Of a DNA stretch of 23,078 nucleotides, positions 3,576-20,442 are shown piece after piece. Below the pieces are notes generated by a model. That model searched no databases. It had not been told where the DNA came from and saw nothing but the letters and a program-made list of their open reading frames with translations. Origin of the DNA: a virus; the IMG/VR virus record IMGVR_UViG_3300031949_000010, one strand, 5' to 3'. Both the position numbers and the translations under genes were made by a program. Numbering within the stretch: position 1 is the first letter of the stretch; each line of letters opens with the position of its first letter.

Positions 3576-3649
3576 CACCGAAACTGCTAATGTGCTCCGA
3601 TTGCGGCGAGTGCAGGCGAGGAGGAAGCGGATGAAGGAGGAGAGGACAT

Positions 3650-4195: not shown

Positions 4196-4204
4196 GGACT
4201 TGCC

Positions 4205-4471
4205 ATGGCAGACCTAAAGGTGCTTGAGAAGGATGGCTGGGAGGAACTCGACGATGTGGAGAGCGCGATCACAGAGGGCGCTCTCGACATAAGGAAACTC
4301 TGGGCATCAGTCGGTCAAGGCGACACCGCCCAAGCCGCCCTGACGCTATTTGAGGCAGGCTTCGATCTTGACGATGCCGAAGTGGAGGGCGTGAAGGACG
4401 TGACCATCATTTCCACCCCTGACGACATCCTGGGGCAACACTACAGGATCTGGGTGAAGTTGCGCGGGTAA
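4205..4471 (+). CDS. Hypothetical acidic protein
   Basis: SD GAGG; tiles between neighbouring genes. Confidence 0.7.
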   Translation: MADLKVLEKDGWEELDDVESAITEGALDIRKLWASVGQGDTAQAALTLFEAGFDLDDAEVEGVKDVTIISTPDDILGQHYRIWVKLRG

Positions 4472-4483
4472 GAAGGAGAGGAC

Positions 4484-4792
4484 ATGCAAAATCCACGCGC
4501 GAAAAGCGAGAAGATCGAAATCCCACTGGACATCCAAGTGCAGAGCGTAAGCAACCGTGGAAGAAGCACGCTCTCCGCAGCGGTCATCTGGGACCACGGC
4601 TACTGGACGCTGCGCATTGATGGAACGCCCGGGCAATGGACCCTCCGGACTCTCCTGTTTGGCTATCCGGAAGAAGATGAGATTCGGCCGATCTCCGGCG
4701 AGATGTATATCGACGCCGGTGCTGGCTGGTACATCGAGAACTGGCCGGTGGTTCTGGGGCGCGCCCTCAAGATCGTGCTCGGGAACATGTAG
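4484..4792 (+). CDS. Hypothetical protein
   Basis: SD AAGGAGAGG; globular Trp-rich composition. Confidence 0.7.
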   Translation: MQNPRAKSEKIEIPLDIQVQSVSNRGRSTLSAAVIWDHGYWTLRIDGTPGQWTLRTLLFGYPEEDEIRPISGEMYIDAGAGWYIENWPVVLGRALKIVLGNM

Positions 4793-5638: not shown

Positions 5639-5851
5639 ATGGCCCTTGAGGTCGAGATCGCCACATACCGGAGGCTCTGGCCCTCTCTCGTCCAGCGCCA
5701 CCTGGGCAAGCAGGTCCTGATCCAGGGTGATCGGCTGGTCGGCGCCTATCCAGACTATGGCTCCGCCCTCCGCGAGGCGACTAGGCTCTTCGGCACGAAT
5801 CCGTTCCTGATCCGGGAGGTCCGAGACCCGGAGCCGGTGGAGACCCTATGA
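5639..5851 (+). CDS. DUF5678-like small protein
   Basis: LEVEIATYRR...L...HLGKQVLIQGDRLVGAY..Y..A..EA...FG..PFLIREV resembles small proteins typically encoded directly before retropepsin-like proteases. Confidence 0.7.
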   Translation: MALEVEIATYRRLWPSLVQRHLGKQVLIQGDRLVGAYPDYGSALREATRLFGTNPFLIREVRDPEPVETL

Positions 5852-6468
5852 CGGCCGGCGAACGCGCGTTTTCGTTTGGTCGGGAGTCCTTGGCGGCCCC
5901 GAGGCGCAGGTCCCGGAACCTGCTGGGCGCGGCCGCGCCGTCCGCAGGAGCCTCCCTCAGGGACGAGGGCGCGATCATCCAGGTCACGATTCAGCAGCCC
6001 GTGTCCGTGGCGGCGCGCCTGAAGGGCGAGGGCCGGCAGGTCCCAGATCCGTTTCGGGCGCTCGCAATGGTGGACACCGGGGCCTCGATCACGGCGATCG
6101 AGCGGACGGTCGCCGAACGACTGGGGCTCCTCCAGACCGGGGTCGCCCCCGTCGCCGGCGTGACGGGCGTCGCGGAGCAGCCCGTCTATGCCGCATCGCT
6201 CGGCTTCCTCTCTCCGAGCTTCACGCTTGACCCCTGGTCGATGATCGGAAGCCCGATCGGTCGCCAGGGCTTTCATGTTCTCCTTGGACGGGATGTCCTT
6301 CAGCGGCTCCGGCTGATCTACGACGGGGCGTCGGGCGCATTCTCGCTCTCCCCCGCCGACGGAGGACTCGTATCTGGGCCCGGCATCGCGCGGGTAGCAG
6401 GTGTGGTTCTTGCGTTCGCGGGCGTGGGCACGGCTGCGGCCTTCGCGACCGGGCTGCTCAAGCCCTGA
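5848..6468 (+). CDS. Retropepsin-like (clan AA) aspartyl protease with C-terminal membrane anchor
   Basis: AMVDTGASITAI catalytic motif; LLGRDVL closing motif; hydrophobic tail VAGVVLAFAGVGTAAAFATGLL; ATGA coupling to 5639 ORF. Confidence 0.88.
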   Translation: MTAGERAFSFGRESLAAPRRRSRNLLGAAAPSAGASLRDEGAIIQVTIQQPVSVAARLKGEGRQVPDPFRALAMVDTGASITAIERTVAERLGLLQTGVAPVAGVTGVAEQPVYAASLGFLSPSFTLDPWSMIGSPIGRQGFHVLLGRDVLQRLRLIYDGASGAFSLSPADGGLVSGPGIARVAGVVLAFAGVGTAAAFATGLLKP

Positions 6469-6553: not shown

Positions 6554-6778
6554 ATGAGAGGAATTAGAAAATCCTTCTTTGACCACATTTTGGCGCGGAA
6601 TCGCGCTTTGGATCTGACCAAACAAGGTCAAATTGTCAACATCGAACCGCCAGAGCGTCTGTGGGACTTCATCGACCATGTTGGAGTCTTCCTTTTGGAG
6701 CATGGAGCAATCAACTACAAGGACATTGAGGCGGCGCGCGACATGGCTAAGGACTACGAGGACCGCCTAGCCGGGTGA
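6554..6778 (+). CDS. Hypothetical protein in a lower-GC patch
   Basis: SD GAGGAG; AT-richer codons than flanks. Confidence 0.65.
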   Translation: MRGIRKSFFDHILARNRALDLTKQGQIVNIEPPERLWDFIDHVGVFLLEHGAINYKDIEAARDMAKDYEDRLAG

Positions 6779-6816
6779 ATAGCAATATTCTCGTAGAAGA
6801 TAATTTAGCCTCCGCC

Positions 6817-6846
6817 TTGACAACACGCCTCCGGGCGGGCTAGACT
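6817..6846 (+). promoter_or_regulatory. Putative sigma70 promoter TTGACA-N18-TAGACT
   Basis: Perfect -35, 18-nt spacer, AT-rich tract upstream (6779-6806), intergenic. Confidence 0.7.
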
Positions 6847-6855
6847 TCCTTCCGC

Positions 6856-7044
6856 ATGCCGCTGACAGCCCACGCGAGGACGATCCCCACGGACGAAAGC
6901 CCAGAGGAATCCGGTCCCCGTCTGGGCCTGTCGGCGATGGCCCTGGAGAGTTGTCCCGAACCCAGGGACGACGGGGAAGGGCGCCGCTCCCGAACGGCGG
7001 CATGGAAGAGGGGGAAACACACGCGTCGCGAGCCGGGCCGATGA
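6856..7044 (+). CDS. Possible small near-leaderless ORF
   Basis: ATG 9 nt after the -10 box; stop overlaps ATG 7041 (ATGA); low-complexity product. Confidence 0.35.
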   Translation: MPLTAHARTIPTDESPEESGPRLGLSAMALESCPEPRDDGEGRRSRTAAWKRGKHTRREPGR

Positions 7045-7256
7045 GCGAGACATCCATCCGAGACGAGAAGGTCCACTGCAAGAGCGCAATGGCCTCCGCG
7101 TCGGCCCACATCTCGGGCCTCGGGGGGCCGGACGCGTCGCGCGAGCGCCTTGAGGCGGCCGTCAGCCACCTGGCGGCATGCCGGTCCTGCAGGTCCTCCC
7201 TCGACCCAAGTGACCGCGCCCGCTTCGTCTTTGAGGTGTCTCTCTCTCGAGCCTGA
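7041..7256 (+). CDS. Small zf-HC2 (ZAS)-like protein
   Basis: VHCKSA...AVSHLAACRSC (Cys plus HxxxCxxC). Confidence 0.6.
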   Translation: MSETSIRDEKVHCKSAMASASAHISGLGGPDASRERLEAAVSHLAACRSCRSSLDPSDRARFVFEVSLSRA

Positions 7257-7311
7257 ATCCCATCAAGTTTAGCTCAGGTCCAGACGATCATCGTTCCAGG
7301 AAGGAGTGGCC

Positions 7312-7422
7312 ATGGAAACGATGCGAAGGGAACTGGGCGAACGGACGTGGGCGTCGACCTGGGCGTGGGCGGCGGCTATGGTGGGCGCTGGAGTCATCCT
7401 CCTCCTCGGGGCCGTGGCATGA
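7312..7422 (+). CDS. 36-aa single-pass membrane microprotein (absent from ORF track)
   Basis: SD AGGAAGGAG; METMRRELGERTWASTWAWAAAMVGAGVILLLGAVA*. Confidence 0.65.
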   Translation: METMRRELGERTWASTWAWAAAMVGAGVILLLGAVA

Positions 7423-7426
7423 AACG

Positions 7427-7654
7427 ATGAACGGAGAGCCAGAGCGGCCCGGTGCTCCTCGCGACCTCCACACCATCCTCCGGGTTTCGAATATTGGAGG
7501 CCGCGAGGTGCGCTTCCACAAGGATGGCTCGGTACTCGTCTGGGACGGCCCGCTCATGCGCTATCGGGCGCCGACCGAGAAGGAGCGAAGCGAGATCCTT
7601 GCGTGGCTCGACGATCTCACGACACTGGCCAAGTCCGTCCAACCAAAGCCTTGA
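7427..7654 (+). CDS. Hypothetical protein
   Basis: Starts 4 nt after the previous stop; globular composition. Confidence 0.6.
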   Translation: MNGEPERPGAPRDLHTILRVSNIGGREVRFHKDGSVLVWDGPLMRYRAPTEKERSEILAWLDDLTTLAKSVQPKP

Positions 7655-7703
7655 CTCCGCCCCCAGTGCGTTGGATCATGGTGGGCTGAAGAAGGAGGAT
7701 CGG

Positions 7704-8102
7704 ATGACGATCGTCAAGTGCAGAGGTGGGTGCGGCAAGTCGCGCGAGACGCCGACGCTGAACAAGACCCGCGCGGTGGCCGGCCACACGATGGTTTCTC
7801 CCTGGACCTGCGACGAATGCGCCCAGAGGATTGCGCGCCGCAAGGCGGGCACCCCTCCTCCGGAGGAGGAAAAGAAGGACGTCGGGTTCCGGCTCGTGCC
7901 CGGCAAGCGCCGCGCTGCTTTGGTGGATGCGCGCGCGAAGGAGACGTCCGGGGAGAAGGCTCCCACAGGTGGCGCGCCTGGATCCTCGCAGATGTCAGAA
8001 GGGACGCAGGATCCGGTGCCCCCTGTCGGCAATGTCGCATCGGTGGTGGAGACCGCCGACGACGGGAGCCCCGCAGCTCCTCCATCCTCGGCAACGGCCT
8101 GA
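7704..8102 (+). CDS. Hypothetical protein, N-terminal zinc ribbon plus disordered tail
   Basis: SD AAGGAGG; CRGGC...WTCDEC. Confidence 0.7.
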   Translation: MTIVKCRGGCGKSRETPTLNKTRAVAGHTMVSPWTCDECAQRIARRKAGTPPPEEEKKDVGFRLVPGKRRAALVDARAKETSGEKAPTGGAPGSSQMSEGTQDPVPPVGNVASVVETADDGSPAAPPSSATA

Positions 8103-8165
8103 ACGAACTCGATCCAGGGACCGTCCGCCAGTGGCGGCGCGTTCCGGCCAGAAGGGAGTTGAAAG

Positions 8166-8387
8166 ATGGCCCATCCGGCGAAGGCCCGCAGGTTCGCGGA
8201 GGAATCTCTGGCCTTCCACTCGCGCAAAGTGGGAAACCGGGACGAGGAGTTCGAAACCAAGTTGTCGGACCTCCTTGCGGACCTCATGCACCTGGCGGAC
8301 GCGAAGGGCGTGGAGTTCGATGAGGTCGTAGCGCACGCCCGCAGGAATTTCCAAGGGGAACGCGCGGAACACGGGCGCGACGCCTGA
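8166..8387 (+). CDS. Small helical protein with DLLADLMH motif
   Basis: LSDLLADLMHLADAKGVEFD, a pattern I associate with phage/mobile-element hypothetical proteins; function not assignable. Confidence 0.7.
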   Translation: MAHPAKARRFAEESLAFHSRKVGNRDEEFETKLSDLLADLMHLADAKGVEFDEVVAHARRNFQGERAEHGRDA

Positions 8388-8393
8388 AGGAAG

Positions 8394-8930
8394 ATGGCCG
8401 AGAAGCGAAAGCGCGGGCTGGTTCTGGCACCCGAGTACCTGGTCGAGATCATGGGGCGCCGGTACCCCGTCCATGGCATGGTGGAGGCCTCCCGGCTCGT
8501 AGAGGCGGTCCGCGACCGCTCCGGCGCCGGCGCCTCCGAGATGGGCGCGGAGTTCCCGGTCTACGAGGACGGTCGCATGATCGCCTACGTATCCTACAAT
8601 GGGCGAGTCTGGAGGGGCCTCCCCGGCGCGTGGCCGGATGCCGAGCTCATGTACGATCCGGCAGCGCAACGCTCGGAAGGGAAGCTGGCCGGCCACGCCC
8701 CAGAGGACGATGCGCCAGGGTTGGCCCGCGCCGTGGACGTGGCCCTACGGAGCGCCGCACGCGATGGACTGGACACCATCTCCGTGGAGCGCGCGTTCCG
8801 GGCGGTTCTCGATCAGACTTCGATCCTGGACGATGCACGGCTCTACCTTGGGGACAAGGCCCTGATGCGCGTCTTCGCCGAGGGCCTGGATGCGGCCGGC
8901 GCGTCCCAGGGCGTGGGCGTCACGGCGTAG
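8394..8930 (+). CDS. Hypothetical protein with IAYVSYNGRVW motif
   Basis: RDRSGAGASE...VYEDGRMIAYVSYNGRVW; SD AAGGAAG. Confidence 0.7.
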   Translation: MAEKRKRGLVLAPEYLVEIMGRRYPVHGMVEASRLVEAVRDRSGAGASEMGAEFPVYEDGRMIAYVSYNGRVWRGLPGAWPDAELMYDPAAQRSEGKLAGHAPEDDAPGLARAVDVALRSAARDGLDTISVERAFRAVLDQTSILDDARLYLGDKALMRVFAEGLDAAGASQGVGVTA

Positions 8931-8947
8931 TTGCCCGCCGTTTCTTC

Positions 8948-8976
8948 TTGACAGTGGACCGACTGCGGCGTACCTT
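8948..8976 (+). promoter_or_regulatory. Putative sigma70 promoter TTGACA-N17-TACCTT driving the structural module
   Basis: Perfect -35, 17-nt spacer, intergenic, 85 nt before ATG 9062. Confidence 0.75.
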
Positions 8977-9061
8977 CTTCCTGTAGATCGAGCCTATCCC
9001 TCCCCCGGGCGGCTTAGCCGTTGAAAGGACCCGTGCGGATCTCGATCCGTGCGGAGGCCCC

Positions 9062-11017
9062 ATGGCATCGGAGCTCACGCCCGCCATCCGCGAGGCGGTC
9101 GACGCGCTCTTCAGGCAGGGCGTCACGAAGGCCAGCGAGATCGTCGACACCCTGGCCCAGCGCAAGCTCAAGATCAACGCCATGCAGGTGGGTGGTCTCT
9201 GGACACTCTACCGCCGCAAGATGGCGGCCGAGCCCGGCGCGCCCAAGATGTCCCCCGACCCCCTGAAGCGTGCGGCAAGGGCGCAAGCGGACGCCGACGA
9301 CAGGCTGAAGTTGGGCGTGGGTGCCACGGACGACGGCTTCAACTGGTCTGGGGACGGGAAGGGCGGCGGGCTCGGGTTCGGGCAGTCCAGGGTAGAGGTG
9401 CACGTCACCCGCATCGCCCCCGCGAACGACGGCTTCCTCGGCGTCGAGGAGGACGGCCTCACACCCGACCAACTCGGCCGCAAGTACGGCTGGGGCACCT
9501 ACGACCTCGTGAAGTACGTGAACGGCACGAAGATCGCCACGTCGAGGATCTCGATCGCGAAAAGCTACGGCGACCCACGCGCCCCGCGGAACCCGGCCGT
9601 GCTGCCACGTCTCGTCCCCCGGGACGAGGAGGCGGAGAGGGCGACGCATCGGGCGCCCGAGAGCGGGTCGGCGGGACACCTGGGCGACGTGGTCCAGACC
9701 TTCAAGACCCTGAAGGACATCGCCGAGGCCGACCGGCCTGGCGCAACGGCTGCGGAAGCCAAAGTCATTGATCGTGCCCTCGAGGTCGCCATGGGCGGGA
9801 AGAGCGCGCCCGGGCAGGACGCCCTCGAGCGGTTCGTGAAGGAGCAGTCCGCAAGGGACGCCGCCGAACGCATCGCCGAGCGAGACCGCGAGAACGCCCG
9901 CCGCGCCGAGGAGCGCGAGCGGTGGAACCAGATGGAGAAGGAGAGGGAAGGGGCCCACACGCGCGAAATGGAACGTATCCGGGCTGAGGTGGCCGCGACT
10001 GAGAAGCGCGACCGCGAGTACCGGGACTTCCTCCAGAAGAACGAGAAGGACCGGGAGGCGCGTCTCGAGAAGGTGATCCAGGAGACGAACGAGTCCGTCC
10101 AGGGCCTCCAGGTGGCCATGAAGGATGAACTCGACAAGAACCTCGCCCACCAGCGGGAGTTGGCGAAGATCGAGCGCGACCGGCTCGACAGCGACCGCAC
10201 GCGCGACACGCGGGAGCTCGCGCAACTCAAGGAGCACCAGCAGCAACTCTTCGAGCTCCAGAGGCAGAGCCTGCCGGGCGCCGGATCGGACAAGGCGACC
10301 GAGATGATCGTCGGCCTGATCCAGAACGCGCTCGCGAAGGTCGAGACGAAGGCGAACGAGATCCTCCAACTCAAGAAGCTCGAGAAGGTGATCGCCGCGC
10401 TCGGCCCCGAGAACGCGCAGCAACTCGCCGCCGCCTTCATGCGGCAGGGCGGGATAGACCTCGGCAGCTTCCTGGGCGGACGCGGACCCGCCGCTCCGGG
10501 CGCCCGCCCGGCGGGGGCCGAGGGCGCGGCCACCGGCGGGGAGCCCAAGGCCGAGGCGAAAGAGGACCCGAAGGGGGACGGCATGAACGGCATCGCGCAG
10601 CAGGTCTACGGCACCCCCTTCTTCCGGGACCTCCTCTCGATCTGGTCGGGTCACCTGCGGATGAAGCGGACGCCTTATCTCTTCGCGAACCAACTCTGCG
10701 GCTACATGCTCGAGGACCGCCGGGTCGAGCTCTTCTACAACTACATGGCGGGCCTGACATGGCCCGAGTTCCTGGCGGAGATCCGGGACAAGGTTGATCC
10801 GGACAGGCTGCCGCTCTTCGAGGCCCCAGAGGCCTTGGCGTTCTTCGACGCGGTGATCGACCTCGTTGCGCAACGGGTGGAGAAGGACCACGTCGACCGG
10901 AACATCGTACCGAGGAAGGCAGCGGGGGCGGGGGCGGCCATGGCAGTCCCGGCTGCGGAGGCCGCGTCCGCCAACGGGAGCGCGGCCACGCCTGCCATGG
11001 AGGGCGGCTCGAAATGA
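9062..11017 (+). CDS. Large coiled-coil protein (N-terminal helical/HTH-like region, YGWGTY domain, E/R/K-rich coil, helical C-terminal domain)
   Basis: SD GGAGG; strongly GC-ending codons; long charged heptad-like stretch; ATGA overlap with next gene. Confidence 0.85.
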   Translation: MASELTPAIREAVDALFRQGVTKASEIVDTLAQRKLKINAMQVGGLWTLYRRKMAAEPGAPKMSPDPLKRAARAQADADDRLKLGVGATDDGFNWSGDGKGGGLGFGQSRVEVHVTRIAPANDGFLGVEEDGLTPDQLGRKYGWGTYDLVKYVNGTKIATSRISIAKSYGDPRAPRNPAVLPRLVPRDEEAERATHRAPESGSAGHLGDVVQTFKTLKDIAEADRPGATAAEAKVIDRALEVAMGGKSAPGQDALERFVKEQSARDAAERIAERDRENARRAEERERWNQMEKEREGAHTREMERIRAEVAATEKRDREYRDFLQKNEKDREARLEKVIQETNESVQGLQVAMKDELDKNLAHQRELAKIERDRLDSDRTRDTRELAQLKEHQQQLFELQRQSLPGAGSDKATEMIVGLIQNALAKVETKANEILQLKKLEKVIAALGPENAQQLAAAFMRQGGIDLGSFLGGRGPAAPGARPAGAEGAATGGEPKAEAKEDPKGDGMNGIAQQVYGTPFFRDLLSIWSGHLRMKRTPYLFANQLCGYMLEDRRVELFYNYMAGLTWPEFLAEIRDKVDPDRLPLFEAPEALAFFDAVIDLVAQRVEKDHVDRNIVPRKAAGAGAAMAVPAAEAASANGSAATPAMEGGSK

Positions 11018-11712
11018 TGCCCTTCGTCATGCCCCGTACCCGCCTGGGCGTCGCCGTCGACGCGCCCGGGCCGAGGGAGGGCGAGATCATCCGGACCTCG
11101 GTGCCCGACACGATGGAGGGCATCCGGTTCGAGATGGGCCGCATGGTCCGCTCCGTCCAGGAGGCGGTCGGGGACCCGGTCGTCGTCGATGCTGCCAGGA
11201 TGATCCTCCTGGCGTCGGAGCCCAAGAACAAGATCTCGGAGCTCGGCGCGATCTTCGCGTGGTCGAAAGCGCACTTCCACTACGTGAGCGACCCCGTCAA
11301 CAAGGAGTACATGCAGTCGGCCCGGCGGATGATCCGGCAGGCGCAGGCCCCGAGGGCGATGCTTGCCAGGATCCTGGCGCCGATCTACGGGCACGCGAAA
11401 AACGGCGTGGTCCGGATGGACGGCCGCGAGATGAACGGCCCTCTGCCAAAGGCCCTCGGAGACTGTGAAGAAGCGGCCGTGCTCACGGCGAGCCTCGCGG
11501 GTGCCGTGGGAATACTGCCCCGTTTCCGCTACGGGGGCGCAGGCAAGAGCCTCTGGCACGCCTGGAGCCAGGCCTACGTCCCGCCCGATGGCCTGTCGGG
11601 CGTGGGCCCAGAGGGCCAGTGGCTCGACATGGACATCACCGAGACGAAATACGACCTCGGACAGCACGCGCCCTTCCGGGCGTACGCGCACCAGGAGATC
11701 TTCGAGAACTGA
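11014..11712 (+). CDS. Transglutaminase-like (papain-fold) cysteine enzyme, candidate maturation protease
   Basis: FHYVSDP..KEYMQS, GDCEEAAVLTASL (Cys), WHAWSQAY (His), WLDMDIT (Asp). Confidence 0.85.
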   Translation: MMPFVMPRTRLGVAVDAPGPREGEIIRTSVPDTMEGIRFEMGRMVRSVQEAVGDPVVVDAARMILLASEPKNKISELGAIFAWSKAHFHYVSDPVNKEYMQSARRMIRQAQAPRAMLARILAPIYGHAKNGVVRMDGREMNGPLPKALGDCEEAAVLTASLAGAVGILPRFRYGGAGKSLWHAWSQAYVPPDGLSGVGPEGQWLDMDITETKYDLGQHAPFRAYAHQEIFEN

Positions 11713-11713
11713 T

Positions 11714-12364
11714 ATGGGCGTCCCCGAGTTGGTCTGGGAAGGCGGCGCGCCGGGAGGCGCGGCGTTGGCGGAGTCGGTCCGCCCCGGACGCGGCGGCTTC
11801 GACGTCCTCGAGCTCGGGCGCGGACCGGCGCTCGCGCAGGCAACCGATATGGTGATCCCCGGACCCGCGAGCGGCTTCGACCTGGCCGGGGGCCTCATGG
11901 GCCTCCTCTCGGACGGGATCTCGGGGCTCGGGACGATCATCGGTGCGCCGCTCGGCGTGATCGGCGACGCCGCCTCGTTCGTGATCGACGGAATCGCGGG
12001 GCTCGTGGGGAAAATACCGATCGTGGGCGAGTTGGTGGGGACAGTGCTCCTCGTCGGGAAGACGCTCCTCAACGCGGGCCTCAGCCTGCCCGAGACGGTG
12101 CTCAAGGCGTTCGCGAACGTCTTGGGCAGCTTCTCGAAACTCTCTTCCGACCAGCAGAAGAAGGTCTCCGAGGCCGCGATCGGGAAGCTGACCTCCTGGG
12201 GCAAGGAGAAGGGCCGGGAGGAAGACGTGCGGTCTATGCTCGAGAGGAACGCGCCACTCCCGGGCGGGGCCACCTCGGCACCGCCGGATGCGAGTTGGGG
12301 AACGGCGCTCGTCGGGATCGGGGTTCCGGTGGTGCTCACGGGCGGGGCGGCCCTTTTCGCATGA
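11714..12364 (+). CDS. Gly-rich putative virion membrane protein with C-terminal anchor
   Basis: ATG 1 nt after previous stop; amphipathic G/L/I/V-rich middle (KIPIVGELVG); tail WGTALVGIGVPVVLTGGAALFA. Confidence 0.75.
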   Translation: MGVPELVWEGGAPGGAALAESVRPGRGGFDVLELGRGPALAQATDMVIPGPASGFDLAGGLMGLLSDGISGLGTIIGAPLGVIGDAASFVIDGIAGLVGKIPIVGELVGTVLLVGKTLLNAGLSLPETVLKAFANVLGSFSKLSSDQQKKVSEAAIGKLTSWGKEKGREEDVRSMLERNAPLPGGATSAPPDASWGTALVGIGVPVVLTGGAALFA

Positions 12365-12383
12365 CGGAGGGGGAAGGAGAACC

Positions 12384-13022
12384 ATGGCCGACGAGGTGAT
12401 CGAAATGGGATCTTTTGAAGGAGGACGGAAGATGGCATCGAGGAAGGGCGGCGGCCTGGGGCGCCAGGTGGACCGGGCCGTCAACATGCTGGCGCGCGAG
12501 CGCGCGGGCCTGGGCTCCCGCGCCGGCTTCGGCCGGCCGGGCTTCGGCAACATCAGGCGCGAGGAGCTCGCCGGCCGGTTCGGCCACGAGAGCTTCCTGG
12601 GCGCCATCATCCCCAAGCAGGTGAAGCCGGTGCCCGTGATCCTGGGCACCGTCGTGGGCGTCGGGGTGAACAGCGCCGTGGGGCGCCTCCTCGAGAGCCC
12701 GGCGGTCGGGATCAACGCGAACCCGCTGCTCGCGCGCGTGCTCCTGGCCGGGGCCGGCGTGATCGGCCACATCGCGCTCAAGACGGACTTCACGCTCGGG
12801 TTCATGGTCGGGCAGTTCCCCGGCCTGATCGACGCGGGCGTCTCGGCCATCATGGACATGGCCCTGGGCGAGACCTCCCTGGCGGGCGCCGGCAACGGGC
12901 TGGGCGTCGCGTCCCAGGAGACCCTGAACGAACTCCGCGCGCTGCGGCGCAAGCTGGAGGGCGAGGGTGCGACCGGGCAGGGCGCCGTGCCGATGGGCCT
13001 CCGGGCCCGAGCGGCGGCGTAA
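12384..13022 (+). CDS. Putative virion core/membrane protein with basic GLG/GFG-repeat N-terminus
   Basis: SD GGAAGGAG; Arg-rich N-terminus with GGGLG, AGLG, AGFG, PGFG, GRFG, SFLG, then hydrophobic helices. Confidence 0.8.
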   Translation: MADEVIEMGSFEGGRKMASRKGGGLGRQVDRAVNMLARERAGLGSRAGFGRPGFGNIRREELAGRFGHESFLGAIIPKQVKPVPVILGTVVGVGVNSAVGRLLESPAVGINANPLLARVLLAGAGVIGHIALKTDFTLGFMVGQFPGLIDAGVSAIMDMALGETSLAGAGNGLGVASQETLNELRALRRKLEGEGATGQGAVPMGLRARAAA

Positions 13023-13231
13023 CCAAAACCTTCGGCTTTCGCGCCGGGCGGCGGCGGCGCCTCCTTCCGGGGGAGGGACCGATCGGGTCCTTCAGGGAGG
13101 GCCGCCCCGCCGCGGGCGCACGCGGTTCATGGAGTGTGGTGCGAGAGGGTGGGGAGACGCGGTGACCTGGTTCGTTCGGTTTGAGAGTGACGGTTCCGGG
13201 GGCTTCCCCGGCCGATGAAGGAGGCAAGACG
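13023..13231 (+). promoter_or_regulatory. Structured intergenic region/leader before the candidate capsid gene
   Basis: Nested stems between about 13041 and 13119 (GAGGGACC/GGTCCTTC inside CCTCCTT/AGGGAGG inside GGCGGC/GCCGCC) and CCGGGG-GCTT-CCCCGG just before the SD. Confidence 0.55.
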
Positions 13232-13987
13232 ATGATGCAGAAGATGCCGGGCGGCATCCTGCCGGGGTCGGCGTTCACCTACAAGGACTGCGCGGGCGCG
13301 CAGCTCACGGCGTACGCGTTCTGCTCGACGATCATCCAGGCGAAGACCGCCGAGTTGACCGTCGTGGACAGCTACGACACGCCGGCCACGAACGAAGTCG
13401 CCCAGGGCGACATCGTGAGCGACCTGCGGCTGACCACGGGGGACCCGGACCAGGAGTGCGGCCTGTCGGAGAACGACCGCTTCTTCAACGAGGCGAACGG
13501 AGCCGGCTACGCCGACAAGTGCTCCGTCACCGTCCTCTACTGCTACGGCGTGTCGGCCGAGAACCTGCTGACGCTCCCGCAGGCGGTGGCGGTGAACGAC
13601 TCCTGCCTCGAGGAGGTCTGGAACTCGAACGAGCGGTGCCGCATCATCAAGAACATGATGCAGCACTACTGGAACAAGTACCCCGTCGACGCGATCGCCG
13701 CCCAGGGCGCGGTCGGCGCGACGCAGGCCACGTTCCGGGAGATCGTCAACATGGGCGCCAAGTCGCTCGACGACCTCGGCTGCAACTGCTGGTACACGTT
13801 CAACCAGCGCGACCAGACGCTCCGGATCAACATCGACAACCTGGACTCGACGCCCTTCGCCGTGGGCGACACGATCCGGTTCGTCGGCACCTTCGGGACC
13901 CTGCAGCTCGTGCCGAGCCTCGAGTGCATCCGGCCGCTGGGAGCCGTGGATCTCCAGCCGCTTGCGCCGGCGATGCCGGCGGCCTAG
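13232..13987 (+). CDS. Candidate major capsid/major virion protein (251 aa, 10 Cys)
   Basis: Ideal SD GAAGGAGG; near-exclusive C/G-ending codons; flanked by hairpins; no TM segment. The CDS is firm; the capsid role is inferred from context only. Confidence 0.6.
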   Translation: MMQKMPGGILPGSAFTYKDCAGAQLTAYAFCSTIIQAKTAELTVVDSYDTPATNEVAQGDIVSDLRLTTGDPDQECGLSENDRFFNEANGAGYADKCSVTVLYCYGVSAENLLTLPQAVAVNDSCLEEVWNSNERCRIIKNMMQHYWNKYPVDAIAAQGAVGATQATFREIVNMGAKSLDDLGCNCWYTFNQRDQTLRINIDNLDSTPFAVGDTIRFVGTFGTLQLVPSLECIRPLGAVDLQPLAPAMPAA

Positions 13988-14010
13988 GCCGGGATCAAGC
14001 AAGGCCATTC

Positions 14011-14065
14011 CAGGGGGAGGAGCGCCCGAGGAACTGGGCGCCCGGGCGCTCCATCCCTTCCCCTG
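14011..14065 (+). terminator. Stem-loop after the candidate capsid gene (attenuator or mRNA 3' stabiliser)
   Basis: Perfect 10-bp IR GGAGCGCCCG (14019-14028)/CGGGCGCTCC (14043-14052), outer CAGGGG/CCCCTG; no U tract. Confidence 0.5.
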
Positions 14066-14097
14066 CCCCCCGTGGGTAGGGCCCGAAGGAGGTCTCC

Positions 14098-14802
14098 GTG
14101 GCCGAAGGTCGGTCGTCCATCCAGGGGCAATCGCCGCGCGCCATCGAGGCGCCGCCGCGCGAAGGCTTGGGGCTCTCCCAAGCGAGTGCGGACGGGCTTT
14201 TCGTCGTCACGCTCTCGGACTACTTCCGGGACGGCAAGAACAAGACCGACAAGGTCCTCCGGAAGATCGCCGGCGCAGCGGGCCTTCCGCAGGTCCTGGC
14301 AGCGCTCGGCTTCACGCTACCCCGGGAGGCCTACTTCCCGTCGCCCCTCCAGGAGGCGCATCGGCCGCTCAAGACACTCCTTGTTCCCGCGAAACTGGCC
14401 ACGGATCCGCCCGGCCAGATGGACTGCAACGTCCGATTCTGCGCCCCCAGGACCTGCTGGCTCTACATCCGCGACCTCTTCGCCCGGCCGCTCAACCTGA
14501 CGGCCGCCGAGAGCCTCGTCCTCCGCTACAGCCTCCAGTGCGGCTCGAACACCGCCTTCATCGACTTCTGCCAGATCACGTCACAGGCCTCCGAGGCGCC
14601 GGGGCAGTACACGCCGCCCCAGGTCCTCATGGTGCCGCCCACGGGATGCCTCGTGATCGACATCTTCAACGAGGATCAGCACTCCGAGGCCTGGATCGGC
14701 CTCACCGGGTTCCAGTGGCTCGTCCCCGTCGAGGAAGGAGACCCCGTCCTCGGCCTGCGCAGGCAGGCGGCAGCGCGCGCGGCGGGAAGGAACGGCCGAT
14801 GA
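14098..14802 (+). CDS. Putative virion protein, beta-rich C-terminal half with 6 Cys (possible second capsid protein)
   Basis: SD AAGGAGG, GTG start; strand-like segments LVIDIFNE, AWIGLTGFQW. Confidence 0.7.
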   Translation: MAEGRSSIQGQSPRAIEAPPREGLGLSQASADGLFVVTLSDYFRDGKNKTDKVLRKIAGAAGLPQVLAALGFTLPREAYFPSPLQEAHRPLKTLLVPAKLATDPPGQMDCNVRFCAPRTCWLYIRDLFARPLNLTAAESLVLRYSLQCGSNTAFIDFCQITSQASEAPGQYTPPQVLMVPPTGCLVIDIFNEDQHSEAWIGLTGFQWLVPVEEGDPVLGLRRQAAARAAGRNGR

Positions 14803-15527
14803 GCCGCGCCGCCCTGCTGGGCGTCGACGAGGTGATCGAGCTCGGTCAGGAGCGCCCTCCCGAGAGCGCGACCCCGACCGAGCTCCAGGAGATCCGCAGC
14901 GTGATCGACGCTTGGATCGCCCGCTACGGCCGGGAGGTCACGAGGCTGGTCGCCCGGCAGAGCCGTCTCGCACAGGAAACCGGGGAGTCGCTCTTCCGGC
15001 TCTGGCTCCAAGAGGTCGGTGCGACGCTGGGCATCGTGCCCAACCCAGCCGAGGTCTGGGAGGCGACGCGCCTGGTGGCCTTCCGGCTACTCTCGGTCGG
15101 GCAGGCGTTCGCGCAGCAGTACCACCCGTACTTCACGGACGAGCAGGACCGCCTGCTCTCTATGGAGATGGACCAGGCCCTGAAGACGATCGACACGGCC
15201 GAGGAGTTCTCGCGGGCGCTGCGCCCGGAGGTCCTGCAGTACATCGAGCGCCTCATCAAGGGCGCGACCCAGGTCCTTATGGACGTCTCGGCACAACTCG
15301 CCGACATCCTGAAGCGCGTCGGCTTGGCCGCGATCGAGGTGCCCCAACTCACCTTCGACCTCATCAAGTGGATCCGGGAGCACATCGGCCTCGTGGTCGG
15401 GATCGGCGTGGCCGTGGTGGTGGCCGCATTCGTCGTCCCGCCCCTCATCCAGGCCTCCATGGCCTCAGGGCGCATGTCGGGCACGGCGGCGGGGCCCGCG
15501 GGACGCCTCGGAAGGAGCGCGGCATGA
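14799..15527 (+). CDS. Helical protein with C-terminal TM anchor, putative virion membrane protein
   Basis: ATGA overlaps at both ends; IGLVVGIGVAVVVAAFVVPPLI. Confidence 0.8.
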   Translation: MSRAALLGVDEVIELGQERPPESATPTELQEIRSVIDAWIARYGREVTRLVARQSRLAQETGESLFRLWLQEVGATLGIVPNPAEVWEATRLVAFRLLSVGQAFAQQYHPYFTDEQDRLLSMEMDQALKTIDTAEEFSRALRPEVLQYIERLIKGATQVLMDVSAQLADILKRVGLAAIEVPQLTFDLIKWIREHIGLVVGIGVAVVVAAFVVPPLIQASMASGRMSGTAAGPAGRLGRSAA

Positions 15528-16327
15528 GCGAGGGAACCCTCGGCATGGCCGTCCAGTCCCGCCAGCGCGGCGAAGCCCTCGCCCTCGCGCTCCACGTGTC
15601 CGGCCTGGTCGGCGCGTCGGAGACCGTGACCTCGAACGCCGTCCGTGCGCAGGGCTACAACGCCGTCGTCGGCCTCATCCTCTCGGACGTCGCCTTCACG
15701 ATCGAGATCCAAGGGGCGAGCGCGATCCGCAAGGCCGGTCGCCAGGTAGCGGGAGAGTGGACCACGCTCGAGTCGATCGCGAGCGCCGCCTCCGGCGCGC
15801 GCCAGCGCGTCACCCTCGACCACGAAGTGCGGGCCGACTACATCCGGATCCGCCTCGTGAACGGGGCCTCGAAGGAGAGTTTCCTTCAGCACGGCGTCCG
15901 GCTCATTCCCATCTTCTCGTTCAAGCGCGTCGAGGTCGTGAGCGGAGACATCGACGTCACGGCCGCGCCCATTGGCACGCCGACGCCGACGACCGGATCC
16001 CAGAACCTCGCCTTGGCGCCACTTGCGCTGACTTCGACCCCGGCGGTCGCGAAGAAGGCGCGCTGGGTCTCGATCTCGTTCTCAGCCGTCCTCCCGGCGC
16101 TACAGACCGTCACGATCACGCTTGACAGCGCATCCGGAGCTGCTTTCGATGTCCTGATCGAGAGCGTGAACATCCTGCCGGCCGCGTCCGTCGCTGCACA
16201 GGGGTATTTCTTCGAATTCCCGCCCGAGATGCTGCTTGCGGCGGGTGACCAGATCAGGGTCGAACTCACAAACACCGGAGCTCCCGCAGTCACGGCGAGC
16301 GCCGTCATCATGATGGAGACCGGCTAA
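15524..16327 (+). CDS. Two-domain beta-sandwich structural protein (penton/spike-base-like)
   Basis: SD AAGGAG; SDVAFTIEIQG...W...ADYIRIRLVNGA and a second domain ending LAAGDQIRVELTN, both jelly-roll-like strand patterns. Confidence 0.7.
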   Translation: MSEGTLGMAVQSRQRGEALALALHVSGLVGASETVTSNAVRAQGYNAVVGLILSDVAFTIEIQGASAIRKAGRQVAGEWTTLESIASAASGARQRVTLDHEVRADYIRIRLVNGASKESFLQHGVRLIPIFSFKRVEVVSGDIDVTAAPIGTPTPTTGSQNLALAPLALTSTPAVAKKARWVSISFSAVLPALQTVTITLDSASGAAFDVLIESVNILPAASVAAQGYFFEFPPEMLLAAGDQIRVELTNTGAPAVTASAVIMMETG

Positions 16328-17950
16328 ATGTCTTTACGCGGGTCCCGGGTCGGCGGCGTCCCGACGGACGAGGGCGTCTTCGGAACCGGCGCGCTCAACG
16401 AGAACATCGTCGGCGTCATCGTGCGCGCCGCAATGTCCGGGGAAGACGCTTCCGCAGCCGCGGGCTTCCGCAACGTCCCCATCGCCTCCCGCGCCGCGCT
16501 CGCCGCGCAGGCCTACACGGACCAGCGGCTGCTTGTTGACGGAGTGGTGCGCGGCGACGACGGGGTGACGTACAGCGCAATCCCGGCCCGCGCGGGAAAT
16601 GTCGCGATCTCCGAGAGCATCGTGGGTCTGCTTGTGGATGCTCGGGTGGTCGGATGGGACTCCGACGCGGTCGCGGGCTCACAAAACATTCCTGTTCAGG
16701 CTCGCAACGCCGTCGCCGCGCAGTCGTACACTGTGTACCGCCTTCTGACTGATTCCGTCCTCCGCGGCGATGACGGGGCGACGTGGAGCGCAGTCGCAGC
16801 CAGGAACTGGGATGCTGACGGGGATGCCGGATCCACCCTCATCGGTCTTATCGTAAACGCCAGGCTCGCAACCGTGACAGGTGCGTCTGGAGGGGCGACG
16901 GTTAACCGGCTTTACGCCGATCTTCCGTCCGGAATATCCGGAACCACAGATACTGCGGTATTCGCACTCTGGACCGCTTCGTACTGCGTCGGCAGAGACA
17001 CGACGGGCGCCGCCGTTGCGCGACCCGTAGAAGCGAGGGACTATGGCGTAGATGGGGACGCAGACGCCGCTCTGATCGGACTTCTCACGAATGCTAGAAA
17101 CGCAGTTTTCCAAACCCCCACATCAAGCGTCTGGACACGCATATCAGGGGATGCCGTAAGCAGTCTGACGGGTGAATCGACCGGCTCGCAAGTGTGGACG
17201 CGCGTTGCTTCGTCTCTATTCGGCGTCGACACAACCGGCGCCGCCGTGGTCAGGTCGGTGGAGGCGCGGAATGCTGACGCAGACGGTGACTTTGCCACGA
17301 CGCTGATAGGCTTGCTGGTAAATTCGCGTAACGCTCTTCTCGATGCGTCATCCGGTGGATGGGTCATCCAAGGCGGACTCCGAGAAGTGACTGGCGGTGT
17401 GGACGCTGCGCTGATATATGAGACGAGGGAGAGTGGATACGTTTCTTCCATTCGCGAGCGCCGCTTCATCGCGACCTCCCAGACCGCCGGAGCCACTCTC
17501 ACCGCCCAGGCTGCTTTCGTCGCGACGACCCCGACGCTCATGTTGCGACAAGCGGCGGGAGCGACCGAGACGGAAGTCGTCCGGTCCATCTCGATCACTT
17601 CCTTCGCGGCAACTCCAGCCGGGATCCGCGTCGTCGTGATGCTGGATCCGGATGACCGCTTCTCGGCCGGCGGCACGGCGGTCGTGCCTCAGAATCCGAA
17701 CGAAGGCTCGGCTGCTGCCAGCGGCATCACAAGCTTCCTCGAGAACCCGACCGCGACGGCCGCGGACGCGGACGAGCGGATCATCTACAACGAGGGGTTC
17801 GCGGGTGGGGTCGGTGCCAAGCTGGTCCTTGAGTTCAAGGACGAGATGATCCTCTCCGGGGTCGGCACGATCCTCGTCTACGTCTTCGACTCTGCCGGGG
17901 CTGCCGCGCCGACGATCGCTTGGAATTTTGAGTGGGAGGAGTATGTGTAA
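16328..17950 (+). CDS. Putative spike/receptor-binding protein with 71-78 aa internal repeats and beta-rich C-terminal domain
   Basis: TAAATG coupling; five [IL][VI]G[LV][LI]xx[AS] cores; A/G/T/V-rich; ends WNFEWEEYV. Confidence 0.75.
   Translation: MSLRGSRVGGVPTDEGVFGTGALNENIVGVIVRAAMSGEDASAAAGFRNVPIASRAALAAQAYTDQRLLVDGVVRGDDGVTYSAIPARAGNVAISESIVGLLVDARVVGWDSDAVAGSQNIPVQARNAVAAQSYTVYRLLTDSVLRGDDGATWSAVAARNWDADGDAGSTLIGLIVNARLATVTGASGGATVNRLYADLPSGISGTTDTAVFALWTASYCVGRDTTGAAVARPVEARDYGVDGDADAALIGLLTNARNAVFQTPTSSVWTRISGDAVSSLTGESTGSQVWTRVASSLFGVDTTGAAVVRSVEARNADADGDFATTLIGLLVNSRNALLDASSGGWVIQGGLREVTGGVDAALIYETRESGYVSSIRERRFIATSQTAGATLTAQAAFVATTPTLMLRQAAGATETEVVRSISITSFAATPAGIRVVVMLDPDDRFSAGGTAVVPQNPNEGSAAASGITSFLENPTATAADADERIIYNEGFAGGVGAKLVLEFKDEMILSGVGTILVYVFDSAGAAAPTIAWNFEWEEYV
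16397..17330 (+). repeat. Protein-level tandem repeats (A-A-B-B-partial) in the spike gene
   Basis: Cores at 16406, 16619, 16838, 17072, 17303; type A contains RGDDGxT[YW]SA, type B contains GxDTTGAAVxRxVEAR. Confidence 0.85.
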
Positions 17951-18575
17951 CATACTTCTTGCCCTGATGTGGACAACGTCCATAGAAGCCAATGGCCATA
18001 TTGCAGTTGTGGCACAGCACACGAAAGCCTTTCGGCCATCCGGCCCTTCTCAACCAAACGGCCATTTCGAATCCACGATAAGAAGTCTTCTTCCGATGCT
18101 TCTCTCCTCCCCCCTTTTTGTGGTCGAGAGCAAGGAATTCGTAGGCCGACTCTCCACAACATGCACATTGGGGAGGATCTCCACCGTAATGAGTCAGCGC
18201 CAGCAGACGAATTCTTTTCTTGCTTGCTCTAGAAGACTTTCTGTAGAAGTTCGGGTTTTTCCTTCTCCTATTCCTGATGTACACACGACAGCATTCGCAA
18301 CACCATGTCTTGAGCTTGTCTTGGCGGCTGTTGTCCAGTGTGTACATATGAAGCGGTCGCGCGATCCCACACCGTTTGCATATCCTGAGAATAAGCGACC
18401 GTCTGCGTTTTTTCCTACGGATGTATCCGTTGGAGCAAGATATACATATTGCGGACAGGCCATCCTTGGATTTTCCAGAAAGACGAAACGCACAACGCCT
18501 TTTCCAAGACGCGCAATAGATACATCTTTTGCGGTTGCGAAACTGGAACGGTATGATCGGTTGATCCATAGCCAT
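17835..18575 (-). CDS. Free-standing HNH-type endonuclease with two N-terminal CxxC...CxxC modules
   Basis: CACCGE...FLALDHKKGGG...FRVLCHNCN...CPH; SD GGAGG before ATG 18575; markedly lower GC; only convincing minus-strand gene. Confidence 0.85.
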   Translation of the reverse strand: MAMDQPIIPFQFRNRKRCIYCASWKRRCAFRLSGKSKDGLSAICISCSNGYIRRKKRRRSLILRICKRCGIARPLHMYTLDNSRQDKLKTWCCECCRVYIRNRRRKNPNFYRKSSRASKKRIRLLALTHYGGDPPQCACCGESAYEFLALDHKKGGGEKHRKKTSYRGFEMAVWLRRAGWPKGFRVLCHNCNMAIGFYGRCPHQGKKYVTHTPPTQNSKRSSARQPRQSRRRRRGSCRPRRGSSRP

Positions 18576-18603
18576 GCGCCCTCCATAGCGCAGGTTGTGG
18601 CCA

Positions 18604-18646
18604 GAGGCCGACGCCCGTGTCTGCGGGTATCGGCCTCGTTTATTAT
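18604..18646. terminator. Strong hairpin followed by T-rich tract on + strand
   Basis: GAGGCCGA..CCCG/CGGG..TCGGCCTC (18604-18637) then GTTTATTAT. Confidence 0.55.
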
Positions 18647-18670
18647 CGGACAATTCGAAGAACGAGTCAA
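18642..18670 (-). promoter_or_regulatory. Putative promoter for the HNH gene, TTGACT-N17-GATAAT
   Basis: -35 at 18670-18665, -10 at 18647-18642 on the minus strand. Confidence 0.6.
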
Positions 18671-18700
18671 CCCAGCCAAATTAGGAATCAAGGTCTCTTA

Positions 18701-19564
18701 ATGGACCAATTCTCCACCAGTCCAGCAGGCGGCGGCGGGGGATCGACGTCCCTGCTCTTCGGGGACGGTAGCACTGGCACGGGCACGATCGGAAACACCA
18801 CGCTCACTGCCGACGCCTACTACGACGACCTGACCATCCCGGGCGGCGTGGTCCTCGAGACCGCCGGGTACCGGCTGTTCGTGAAGGGGACCTTAACGAA
18901 CAACGGGACCATCCGGAACAACGGGGTGAACGGGATCGCCGGAAGCGCGGGACAGGCGGGAGCCCCGGCCGGGACGCTGGCCGGAGGCACCATCGGGGGC
19001 AACGGCGGCAACCCCTCCACGGCCGGAACCAACCAAGCCAACAAGGGCGTAGGGGGCGGGGGTGGGAACGGCGGGAATGCTTCCGTTTCCAACGGATCGC
19101 TTGGCGGGACCGTCACCGCTATCGCCGCGAACGAAGGCGGGACCGGGGTCCTGCGGAACATCCCTGGGGGAATGACGGGCCGTCGTTTACAGGGCCCTGC
19201 GGCCGGTGCATTCGAGAATGTTGCCGTCGCTCCGGGAGCCGGGGGTGGGGGCGGCGGGGAAGGCGCTGGCTTCGGCTCGGGCTCGGGCGCGGGCGGGGGC
19301 GGCGGTGTCATCGTGGCCGCGCACGCTTGGGCGGGCTCCGGGGTGGTGGAAGCGAAGGGCGGAGACGGGGGGAGCCCGTTGGGCAACGGCGGGGGCGGCG
19401 GGGGCGGCGGGGGCGGGTTCATCGTCGCCGTTTCCGGAGGGGACGATTTCGGGTCGGTCACCTTCTCGGTCGCGGGCGGGGCCGCAGGGACCGGGAATGC
19501 TCCGGGGCTGAACGGGACCTCTGGAAGCAGCGGGCAGCTCGTCCAGATCACAAATGCCGCATGA
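18701..19564 (+). CDS. Glycine-rich virion surface protein
   Basis: LFGDGSTG N-terminal motif, GYRLFVKGTLT, multiple GGGGG runs typical of phage Gly-rich fibre domains. Confidence 0.8.
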   Translation: MDQFSTSPAGGGGGSTSLLFGDGSTGTGTIGNTTLTADAYYDDLTIPGGVVLETAGYRLFVKGTLTNNGTIRNNGVNGIAGSAGQAGAPAGTLAGGTIGGNGGNPSTAGTNQANKGVGGGGGNGGNASVSNGSLGGTVTAIAANEGGTGVLRNIPGGMTGRRLQGPAAGAFENVAVAPGAGGGGGGEGAGFGSGSGAGGGGGVIVAAHAWAGSGVVEAKGGDGGSPLGNGGGGGGGGGGFIVAVSGGDDFGSVTFSVAGGAAGTGNAPGLNGTSGSSGQLVQITNAA

Positions 19565-19570
19565 TGATCC

Positions 19571-19599
19571 TTGGAGGTGGCCGCGCGCCGGGCTATAAT
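19571..19599 (+). promoter_or_regulatory. Putative promoter TTGGAG-N17-TATAAT
   Basis: Perfect -10 in GC-rich DNA, 17-nt spacer, intergenic. Confidence 0.7.
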
Positions 19600-19613: not shown

Positions 19614-19973
19614 ATGAAAGCCAGATACGAGATGACGAGGTTCGACGCGGATTCCTATCCCGGGACCGCCATCGTCCGCATCCAGGCGACCGCGCTTCAT
19701 ACGGACGGTTCGCCGGCGACCTACCGGAAACGCGTCAGCCTCATGGAGAACGGGAAGCCCGCGGTGGGCTACGAGCAGGCGTCTGTCTTCTCCGAGGCGG
19801 AGCGGCGTCTGCCCTACGAAGGCCAGGAGCCGCAAGCGTACGGGCTCGAAGTGGCGAGATCCGTGAAGGGCGAACTCGACGACAAGCTCGCGAAGGCTCT
19901 GAACGCGCACGGCCTCCGCGATGCGGCCCCGGCAGCGCCCAAGATCGAAGGACCTGTGGAGCTCAAACTTTGA
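19614..19973 (+). CDS. Hypothetical protein
   Basis: SD GGAG; codon usage like flanks. Confidence 0.75.
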   Translation: MKARYEMTRFDADSYPGTAIVRIQATALHTDGSPATYRKRVSLMENGKPAVGYEQASVFSEAERRLPYEGQEPQAYGLEVARSVKGELDDKLAKALNAHGLRDAAPAAPKIEGPVELKL

Positions 19974-19989
19974 TTTGGAGGTCTGGAAC

Positions 19990-20442
19990 ATGACGGAGAT
20001 CACGCCGACGGTGCCGGACGGTTACCGGGAGTTGACCGGGACCGAGAAGGAGGAGTTTCTGAACGTCGGGACCGCGATCACGCTCCTCCAGTTCAAGTTG
20101 AACCAGCATCAGGCGGAGCTCCGCGCCGCGAAGGTCGAGACCGAGCTGGCCCAGTCCCGGATCCGGGACGTTCAGCGCGAGATGCAGATCGCGATGCAGC
20201 AGCGCGACGAGCAGAATGCGCGCCTCAAGATCGTGGGCAACAAAGAGGACGTGGTCGTGGACGGCTCCAAGGTCTACGTCATCGTCCGACCGGAAGGCTG
20301 GGAGCCGCCGAAGAAGGCCTCTTCCGAGATGAGGCTCATCCCGGGCGTCGGTCGGGTCGAGATCACGAAGACGCCCGGCATGCCGTCCCTTGAGGCGATG
20401 GCCACCGCCCCCATCGTGCCCGTGGACAAAAAGAAGGACTAG
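19990..20442 (+). CDS. Hypothetical coiled-coil protein
   Basis: SD GGAGG; Q/E/R-rich helix. Confidence 0.75.
   Translation: MTEITPTVPDGYRELTGTEKEEFLNVGTAITLLQFKLNQHQAELRAAKVETELAQSRIRDVQREMQIAMQQRDEQNARLKIVGNKEDVVVDGSKVYVIVRPEGWEPPKKASSEMRLIPGVGRVEITKTPGMPSLEAMATAPIVPVDKKKD

Follow-up and report, generated by a model that had tools for sequence, protein, structure and literature searches.

A candidate virion module of orphan genes in a large GC-rich soil virus

The DNA analysed here is a stretch of 23,078 nucleotides (nt), in the following referred to as the window, from the virus recorded in IMG/VR as IMGVR_UViG_3300031949_000010, and the element in question is a 10.6 kb block within it (8948-19564) that comprises ten co-directional genes located between 9062 and 19564. 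A sequence-only reading of the window had regarded this block as a virion module lacking any recognisable hallmark gene, and had attributed it to a tailless, membrane-containing virus. The former view is upheld by a confidently predicted jelly-roll domain with relatives in phage virion modules, and the block is probably involved in building the virus particle; the latter is weighed below against several alternatives. What the block offers is an example of structural dark matter, i.e. ten successive late genes of a soil virus of ~96 kb, nearly all of which fall outside every family library.

Gene content and layout of the block

The window has a G+C content of 67%, and every credible gene lies on the + strand. 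Within the block, G+C content at third codon positions (GC3) amounts to 0.85-0.99 and that at second positions (GC2), the lowest of the three, to 0.32-0.60, a strong coding signal. Gene starts, by which genes are named here, were refined using in-frame ATG codons preceded by a Shine-Dalgarno site, and hydropathy and composition were computed for the module proteins in order to call membrane anchors and residue biases. The left boundary (8922-8976) consists of a terminator-like hairpin (8922-8941, + strand), which ends the preceding gene, and of a promoter-like site on the same strand starting at 8948 (TTGACA-17 nt-TACCTT) with a perfect -35 and a weak -10 element (3/6); this site was read by inspection of the letters, and a consensus promoter scan gave no report of it. 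On the right, a second promoter-like site (TTGGAG-17-TATAAT, 19571-19599, + strand) precedes gene 19614 and opens the next unit. Since boundary signals are present on both sides, the extent originally proposed for the block marks a natural unit, except that positions 17951-18700 are an antisense insert of low G+C content and do not belong to the + strand operon. The frequent translational coupling that had been noticed within the block is likewise real, because four junctions overlap or abut and one has a gap of 1 nt: genes 11014, 14799 and 15524 start within ATGA overlaps of 4 nt, gene 16328 abuts its predecessor, and the single-nucleotide gap precedes gene 11714. Scans of the window with Rfam and for tRNAs gave no matches, nor did a megablast comparison of the block with GenBank phages.

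The first of the ten genes, all of which are on the + strand, encodes a highly charged, helical and coiled-coil-like protein of 651 amino acids (aa) without family assignment (9062-11017; 98 Lys and Arg, 103 Asp and Glu; 31% charged residues). It overlaps the gene of a 232-aa protein (11014-11712), the only module protein recognised by sequence searches of Pfam, PHROGs, NCBIfam and the PDB. Its match to the transglutaminase core (PF01841, Transglut_core; E 5.7e-6, residues 103-207) reaches 27 bits against a cut-off of 23, and Cys151, His182 and Asp206 provide the Cys-His-Asp triad; with a profile score above the gathering threshold and the triad in place, the sequence assigns this protein, of the transglutaminase/papain fold, to the transglutaminase-like superfamily. 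PDB matches of the same protein to leucine-rich-repeat kinases were rejected, as no stretch passed.

Three proteins carry hydrophobic anchors, a feature that is compatible with a membrane location and non-specific: a Gly-rich protein of 216 aa with three hydrophobic segments and no family (11714-12364), a protein of 212 aa with a basic N-terminus and two such segments (12384-13022), and a protein of 242 aa with a strong C-terminal anchor (14799-15527; hydropathy 2.73), the helical look of which is a reading of the sequence and not a prediction. Interleaved with them are soluble proteins. The 251-aa product of gene 13232 (13232-13987) is Cys-rich (10 Cys) and apparently highly expressed, and its gene has a GC3 of up to 0.99 and an AGGAGG Shine-Dalgarno site; it is followed by a 234-aa protein with 6 Cys (14098-14802), for which Pfam, PHROGs, NCBIfam and PDB sequence searches found no family, and, beyond the anchored 242-aa protein, by a soluble 267-aa protein with five homologues (15524-16327). 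The 540-aa product of gene 16328 (16328-17950) is a putative fibre with five repeats of ~75 aa, each ending in an (A/T)LIGL(L/I)xNxR-type motif, and a conserved C-terminal domain (residues ~365-540). The last gene (18701-19564) encodes a 287-aa protein with 32% Gly and no family, phrog_13336 being reached at E 0.015 only. The Cys-His-Asp enzyme, the anchored proteins, the repeat protein and the Gly-rich protein had all been correctly recognised beforehand.

Further searches added little to this picture. PDB sequence searches with eight proteins of the module and its neighbourhood yielded nothing real, IMG/VR scans with the proteins of genes 13232, 15524, 11014 and 19921 and with an alignment of the first of these gave no match, and no capsid family was matched in Pfam or PHROGs by any module protein. 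At the level of sequence the gene set is new, while structural modules in which orphan genes abound are already known from phages.

The jelly-roll domain of the fibre and the candidate shell proteins

The putative fibre has 34 homologues with identities of 24-61%, among which conservation is mainly confined to the C-terminal ~175 aa, and the repeats differ in both number and sequence; a Pfam scan of all 34 found no family in common. An AlphaFold2 model of this C-terminal domain (C-domain), based on 33 sequences, is a ten-strand sandwich with a predicted local distance difference test score (pLDDT) of 86.8 and a predicted template modelling score (pTM) of 0.82, so that the domain is confidently predicted to be a jelly roll. 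Comparison with the predicted viral structures of BFVD returned 132 matches at E<=1e-3. The best 27 are without exception uncharacterised; they measure 154-414 aa (mostly <300 aa), have template modelling (TM) scores of 0.46-0.75 and, wherever a source is named, stem from tailed phages or tailed archaeal viruses (uncultured Caudovirales, LIMEzero, CVT22, SBP1, Coruscant, HRTV-4, Bcep43 and a Pseudomonas phage; RSB2 comes next, at rank 35). No tecti-, cortico- or sphaerolipovirus occurs among the named rows of the 50 best matches, about half of which are unnamed. The fold search also suggests a likeness to TNF/C1q-like domains; Foldseek matches in the PDB (VP2 of infectious bursal disease virus and others) were set aside, as their TM scores were below 0.31.

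One of the structural relatives belongs to a cultured phage. ORF57 of Pantoea phage LIMEzero (FR751545, 42457-43032), a "conserved hypothetical protein" of 191 aa that was equated with BFVD entry F4N9W0 from its length only, resembles the C-domain in predicted fold (E 2.6e-8, TM 0.61), and a profile comparison found a shared motif GGT..P.N.N..S..PT.TA at E 0.013. Unlike the C-domain it is no part of a fibre, and its gene follows the lysis genes at the right end of the genome. ORF57 thus looks like a remote member of the C-domain family, and other uncharacterised proteins of ~190 aa from cultured podophages are comparable to it. A tblastn search of phages with the C-domain and its homologue at locus L002 (see below) gave no match, and the domain was not found in the 400 other Acidobacteriota genomes searched.

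Scans with a sub-alignment of the C-domain led to four loci, L002 and L003 in IMG/VR as well as L004 and L005 in metagenome-assembled genomes (MAGs). At L002 the homologue is a stand-alone protein of 187 aa, encoded two genes after a major head protein (Mu gpT-like, phrog_371) and before a Phage_tail_S morphogenesis protein; at L003 it is a protein of 256 aa encoded directly before an SU10-type adaptor, and homology links the two stand-alone proteins (E 4e-8). In solved podophages the cement gene occupies this very place, after the head gene region and ahead of the adaptor, as exemplified by PhiXacm4-11, where the major capsid protein gp25 is followed by the jelly-roll cement protein gp26 and the adaptor gp29 (bioRxiv 10.64898/2026.02.16.706137). 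The traceable kin of the C-domain therefore belong to the gene pool of tailed phages. The domain defines a new and widespread jelly-roll family, which stands alone in some phages and is present in cultured podophages; the family could now be annotated, with capsid cement, fibre anchor and fibre knob as candidate roles.

The closest parallel to the block as a whole is L004, from a Thermoanaerobaculia MAG (G001). This genome is unpublished, and all statements made here on L004, L006, L008, L010 and L011 rest on it and need the permission of its depositors to be published. L004 possesses a module in the same order as the block: a charged protein, an anchored protein of transglutaminase fold, further anchored proteins, a basic protein of 1041 aa and an Arg-rich anchored protein. 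Next come a LAGLIDADG-like open reading frame (ORF), three beta-rich ORFs (189, 306 and 261 aa) and a short fibre of 278 aa, the C-domain of which is 81% identical to that of the window. Downstream of this fibre, orthologues (60-61% identical) of 19614 and 19921 from the window are succeeded by a Gly-rich gene. Alignment between the window and L004 is possible for the enzyme (26% identical, Cys and Asp in register), for the C-domain and for the pair of downstream genes only, and not for the putative shell proteins; a comparison of the gene 13232 profile with the 189-, 306- and 261-aa proteins by hhalign detected no similarity. At the junction between the fibre and the orthologue of 19614, both the HNH insert described below and the Gly-rich gene are absent, the latter being found two genes further downstream. 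A search of G001 for other viral pieces carrying two proteins of the window was negative. Some proteins of the relative are of interest in their own right. The 1041-aa protein (L004 2088-6336) is very basic and contains recurring NP(L/A) motifs, and a 371-aa protein follows in the same interval, protamine-like (Arg-rich) over its first ~140 residues and hydrophobic at its centre. Neither has a family match, and the 212-aa protein of the window resembles a shorter analogue of the latter. At L008, a contig of the relative, the gene of a non-homologous protein rich in Lys and Glu precedes that of the transglutaminase by ~1.5 kb, and small ORFs lie in between.

At the fourth locus, L005 in a Gammaproteobacteria MAG, a fibre of 595 aa adjoins a tyrosine integrase region, the two genes being ~2 kb apart (3548-4612 on the - strand and 6696-8483), and some carriers of the fibre family may accordingly be temperate or integrated. 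As to the host, the MAG bins hint, if weakly, at Acidobacteriota (Thermoanaerobaculia) and Gammaproteobacteria. Genes 19614 and 19921 (19614-20442), which belong to no family, travel with the fibre gene, and at L005 a 33% identical gene resembling 19614 again follows the fibre; their products may be chaperones or partners of the fibre.

Much less can be traced for the abundant 251-aa protein. A search of 5.8 billion protein clusters found 12 homologues, each at least 62% identical and all of them metagenomic, and a profile search of 1.84 billion cluster representatives found no real distant homologue, the sole extra match (P0013) being a repetitive multihaem cytochrome that was rejected as a compositional or repeat artefact. 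Its alignment matched no GTDB genome and a single 2 kb contig among JGI metagenomes, and an Atlas search gave no usable match. AlphaFold2 produced a poor model from this shallow alignment (pLDDT 47), which bears weak structural matches to the cement chains of Pam1 and KHP40. In the comparison with jelly-roll capsids that had been suggested for this protein, the poor model showed a weak likeness to single jelly rolls, and the protein is, with low confidence, probably a jelly-roll sandwich. For the 267-aa protein a language model found ~250-aa hypothetical proteins as neighbours (score 0.91, 175-181 shared features), in clusters labelled 89-100% as viruses and most commonly as Uroviricota; the nearest named families (Bbp16, DUF6385 and XepA, at 0.82-0.83) serve as a lead only.

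What the block may build

We consider the block to belong most plausibly to a large tailed phage as an accessory virion module, encoding cement, decoration, fibre and internal proteins, and give this interpretation a probability of about 0.45. That it is a virion module is supported by a jelly-roll family that occurs in phage head modules, by the unidirectional, late-operon-like layout of the genes, by inserts resembling homing endonucleases, which are usual in phage core genes, and by strong expression signals; in favour of a tailed phage are the kinship of the C-domain, the Uroviricota-labelled neighbours of the 267-aa protein, the size of the contig (96 kb) and the lack of an ATPase in the window. 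The data show the gene structure, the coupling, the anchors, the repeats and the jelly-roll domain with its tailed-phage kin, and from them we infer the type of particle and the roles of its proteins as follows. The block would be one tightly coupled transcription unit of particle-associated genes, almost all of them lineage-specific, in a large, GC-rich, uncultivated soil virus. The 540-aa protein would act as a surface fibre, anchored or oligomerised by its C-terminal jelly roll and with its five variable repeats pointing outward, and the 251-aa protein, perhaps together with the 234- and 267-aa proteins, would be a beta-sandwich protein associated with the shell and produced in quantity. 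The transglutaminase-fold enzyme might cleave virion precursors or cell-wall peptides. The charged 651-aa protein and the three proteins with anchors might take part in ejection or assembly, for instance, either at a membrane or within the particle. The particle itself would be that of a tailed phage, with the genes for the HK97 capsid, portal and terminase located outside the window.

Known systems offer parallels for both the cement and the fibre role. With jelly-roll cement and decoration proteins of tailed phages, such as gp26 of PhiXacm4-11, the C-domain shares an eight-stranded jelly-roll type of fold in a unit of ~150-190 aa, and its stand-alone homologues at L002 and L003 share their place between the head region and the head-tail adaptor. 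Bbp16 of Bordetella phage BPP-1 is another jelly-roll cement protein. In contrast to these proteins, the domain of the window is fused behind 360 aa of repeats, has no sequence or family match to characterised representatives and has no HK97 capsid gene nearby. A fibre with a conserved C-terminal beta-sandwich for anchoring or trimerisation is in turn reminiscent of T4 Hoc, of BclA from Bacillus with its C1q-like head and of PRD1 P5 with its TNF-like knob.

Several observations weigh against an accessory module of a tailed phage. As the sequence-only reading had stated, genes for terminase, portal, HK97 capsid, tape measure or tail cannot be recognised, and Pfam, PHROGs and NCBIfam scans of the block and its flanks in the window gave no match to any of these families. 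Cement and decoration genes of tailed phages normally adjoin the capsid gene, and none adjoins here. The gene of the 251-aa protein lies between those of membrane-anchored proteins, a layout expected of internal-membrane viruses, and its poor model weakly resembles viral single jelly rolls. Moreover, the BFVD neighbours of the C-domain have no assigned function, LIMEzero ORF57 is located outside the head module, and the Uroviricota labels of metagenomic clusters are mostly automatic.

Some of these features are what the capsid and membrane module of a tailless icosahedral virus with an internal membrane would show, in this case one of a new and unusually large lineage, in which the 251-aa protein (with or without the 234-aa protein) would form a single-jelly-roll lattice, the fibre would provide vertex spikes via its jelly-roll base and the anchored proteins would reside in the internal membrane. 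Like PRD1 (Tectiviridae), PM2 (Corticoviridae) and the P23-77-like viruses, the block interleaves three small anchored proteins with soluble beta-sandwich proteins and a spike gene, contains a lytic or processing enzyme and encodes an abundant protein that is weakly capsid- and jelly-roll-like; the adjacent beta-rich ORFs of 189 and 306 aa at L004 come close in length to the small and the large P23-77 capsid protein, and no HK97, portal or terminase gene is recognisable in the window. Unlike those viruses, it is accompanied by no A32-like packaging ATPase of the FtsK/HerA type, neither within 9 kb upstream nor within 3.5 kb downstream of the block; no ORF of the window contains a Walker A motif in its coding frame or matches a P-loop family, and, as regards P23-77 in particular, genes 13232 and 14098 are adjacent with the former product weakly jelly-roll-like, and no ATPase gene lies beside the pair. 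No capsid family is matched, and the single well-modelled domain groups with proteins of tailed phages. Genome size argues in the same direction: the contig of the block measures 96,369 nt and relatives lie on contigs of up to 108 kb (P0022 on 108 kb and P0035 on 86 kb; others on 34.6 kb, P0008, and 27 kb, P0016/P0049), and because known bacterial tailless internal-membrane viruses have genomes of ~10-30 kb, several times smaller, we lean against such a particle. The proposal of a PRD1-, PM2- or P23-77-like virus has found no support in the tests made, the Uroviricota-labelled neighbours of the 267-aa protein also pointing elsewhere, and a tailless virus of this kind is unlikely, more so than a large tailed phage with an accessory module. 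A bacterial virus of ~100 kb with a small jelly-roll shell of the 251-aa protein, with or without the 234-aa protein, around an internal membrane and with the 540-aa protein as vertex fibre must be called quite unlikely; were it real, it would far surpass in size all other tailless bacterial viruses with a membrane and represent a lineage without sequence link to PRD1, PM2 or P23-77, and a shell made of jelly-roll proteins would widen the size range of tailless bacterial viruses several-fold.

The module could also serve host adsorption in a tailed phage, as the periphery of a tail fibre or baseplate, with the 540-aa protein and the Gly-rich protein as receptor-binding fibres, an enzyme that degrades the cell wall and anchored proteins that act in ejection or as a channel. 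The fibre architecture with its TNF/C1q-like distal domain, the Gly-rich protein itself and the strong variation of the repeats between fibre relatives, as in receptor-binding parts, are all consistent with this, and the fibre gene at L005, beside an integrase region and with no capsid-like genes near, suggests a mobile cassette. Usual receptor-binding proteins, however, combine a conserved N-terminal with a variable C-terminal part, and the fibre family shows the opposite pattern; the domain forms a protein of its own at L002 and L003, encoded between head genes and adaptors, and Pfam and PHROGs scans found no tail tube, sheath, tape-measure or baseplate family. We regard adsorption as a rather doubtful function of the block. 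Least probable of all is a role outside the virion, either of proteins sent to the host envelope for exclusion, surface remodelling or as an assembly site, or of an element that is not a virus. Many anchored proteins in the block and its flanks and the missing hallmark virion gene would fit such a role, whereas the occurrence of the jelly-roll family in phage virion modules, the homing-endonuclease-like inserts and the coupled, late-operon-like layout in one direction do not, and the search of 400 other Acidobacteriota genomes, in which the family was not found, argues against a common cellular gene set.

Endonuclease-like inserts and flanking genes

The low-GC insert (17951-18700; G+C 0.51-0.56) separates the fibre gene from the Gly-rich gene. 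It harbours an antisense ORF of 272 aa (17835-18653, - strand) with Cys pairs and HNH-like motifs, which reaches no family at threshold and, on its motifs, probably is a homing endonuclease outside the module. Its listed TTG start lies inside a promoter-like site (TTGACT-17-GATAAT, - strand, 18670-18642), and the true start may therefore lie further in. At L004 an ORF of 200 aa with a LAGLIDADG-like motif (6644-7246) directly precedes the 189- and 306-aa beta-rich ORFs and, by its motif, adds to such a module an endonuclease-like insert of a second, different type.

The flanks of the block encode an ASCH-like, a DnaJ-like and a membrane-anchored retropepsin-like protein, and no virion or packaging family. 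The retropepsin-like aspartyl protease and the short DnaJ-like protein are both encoded upstream of the module (5848-6468 and 2880-3575, respectively); the former has a hydrophobic C-terminal anchor, and the latter combines a J domain with a Cys-rich centre. Further upstream, two long frames overlap, one of them (599-2365) coding for 588 aa rich in Ser, Thr and Pro with at least seven (W/S)PTP repeats, the other spanning 577-2418.

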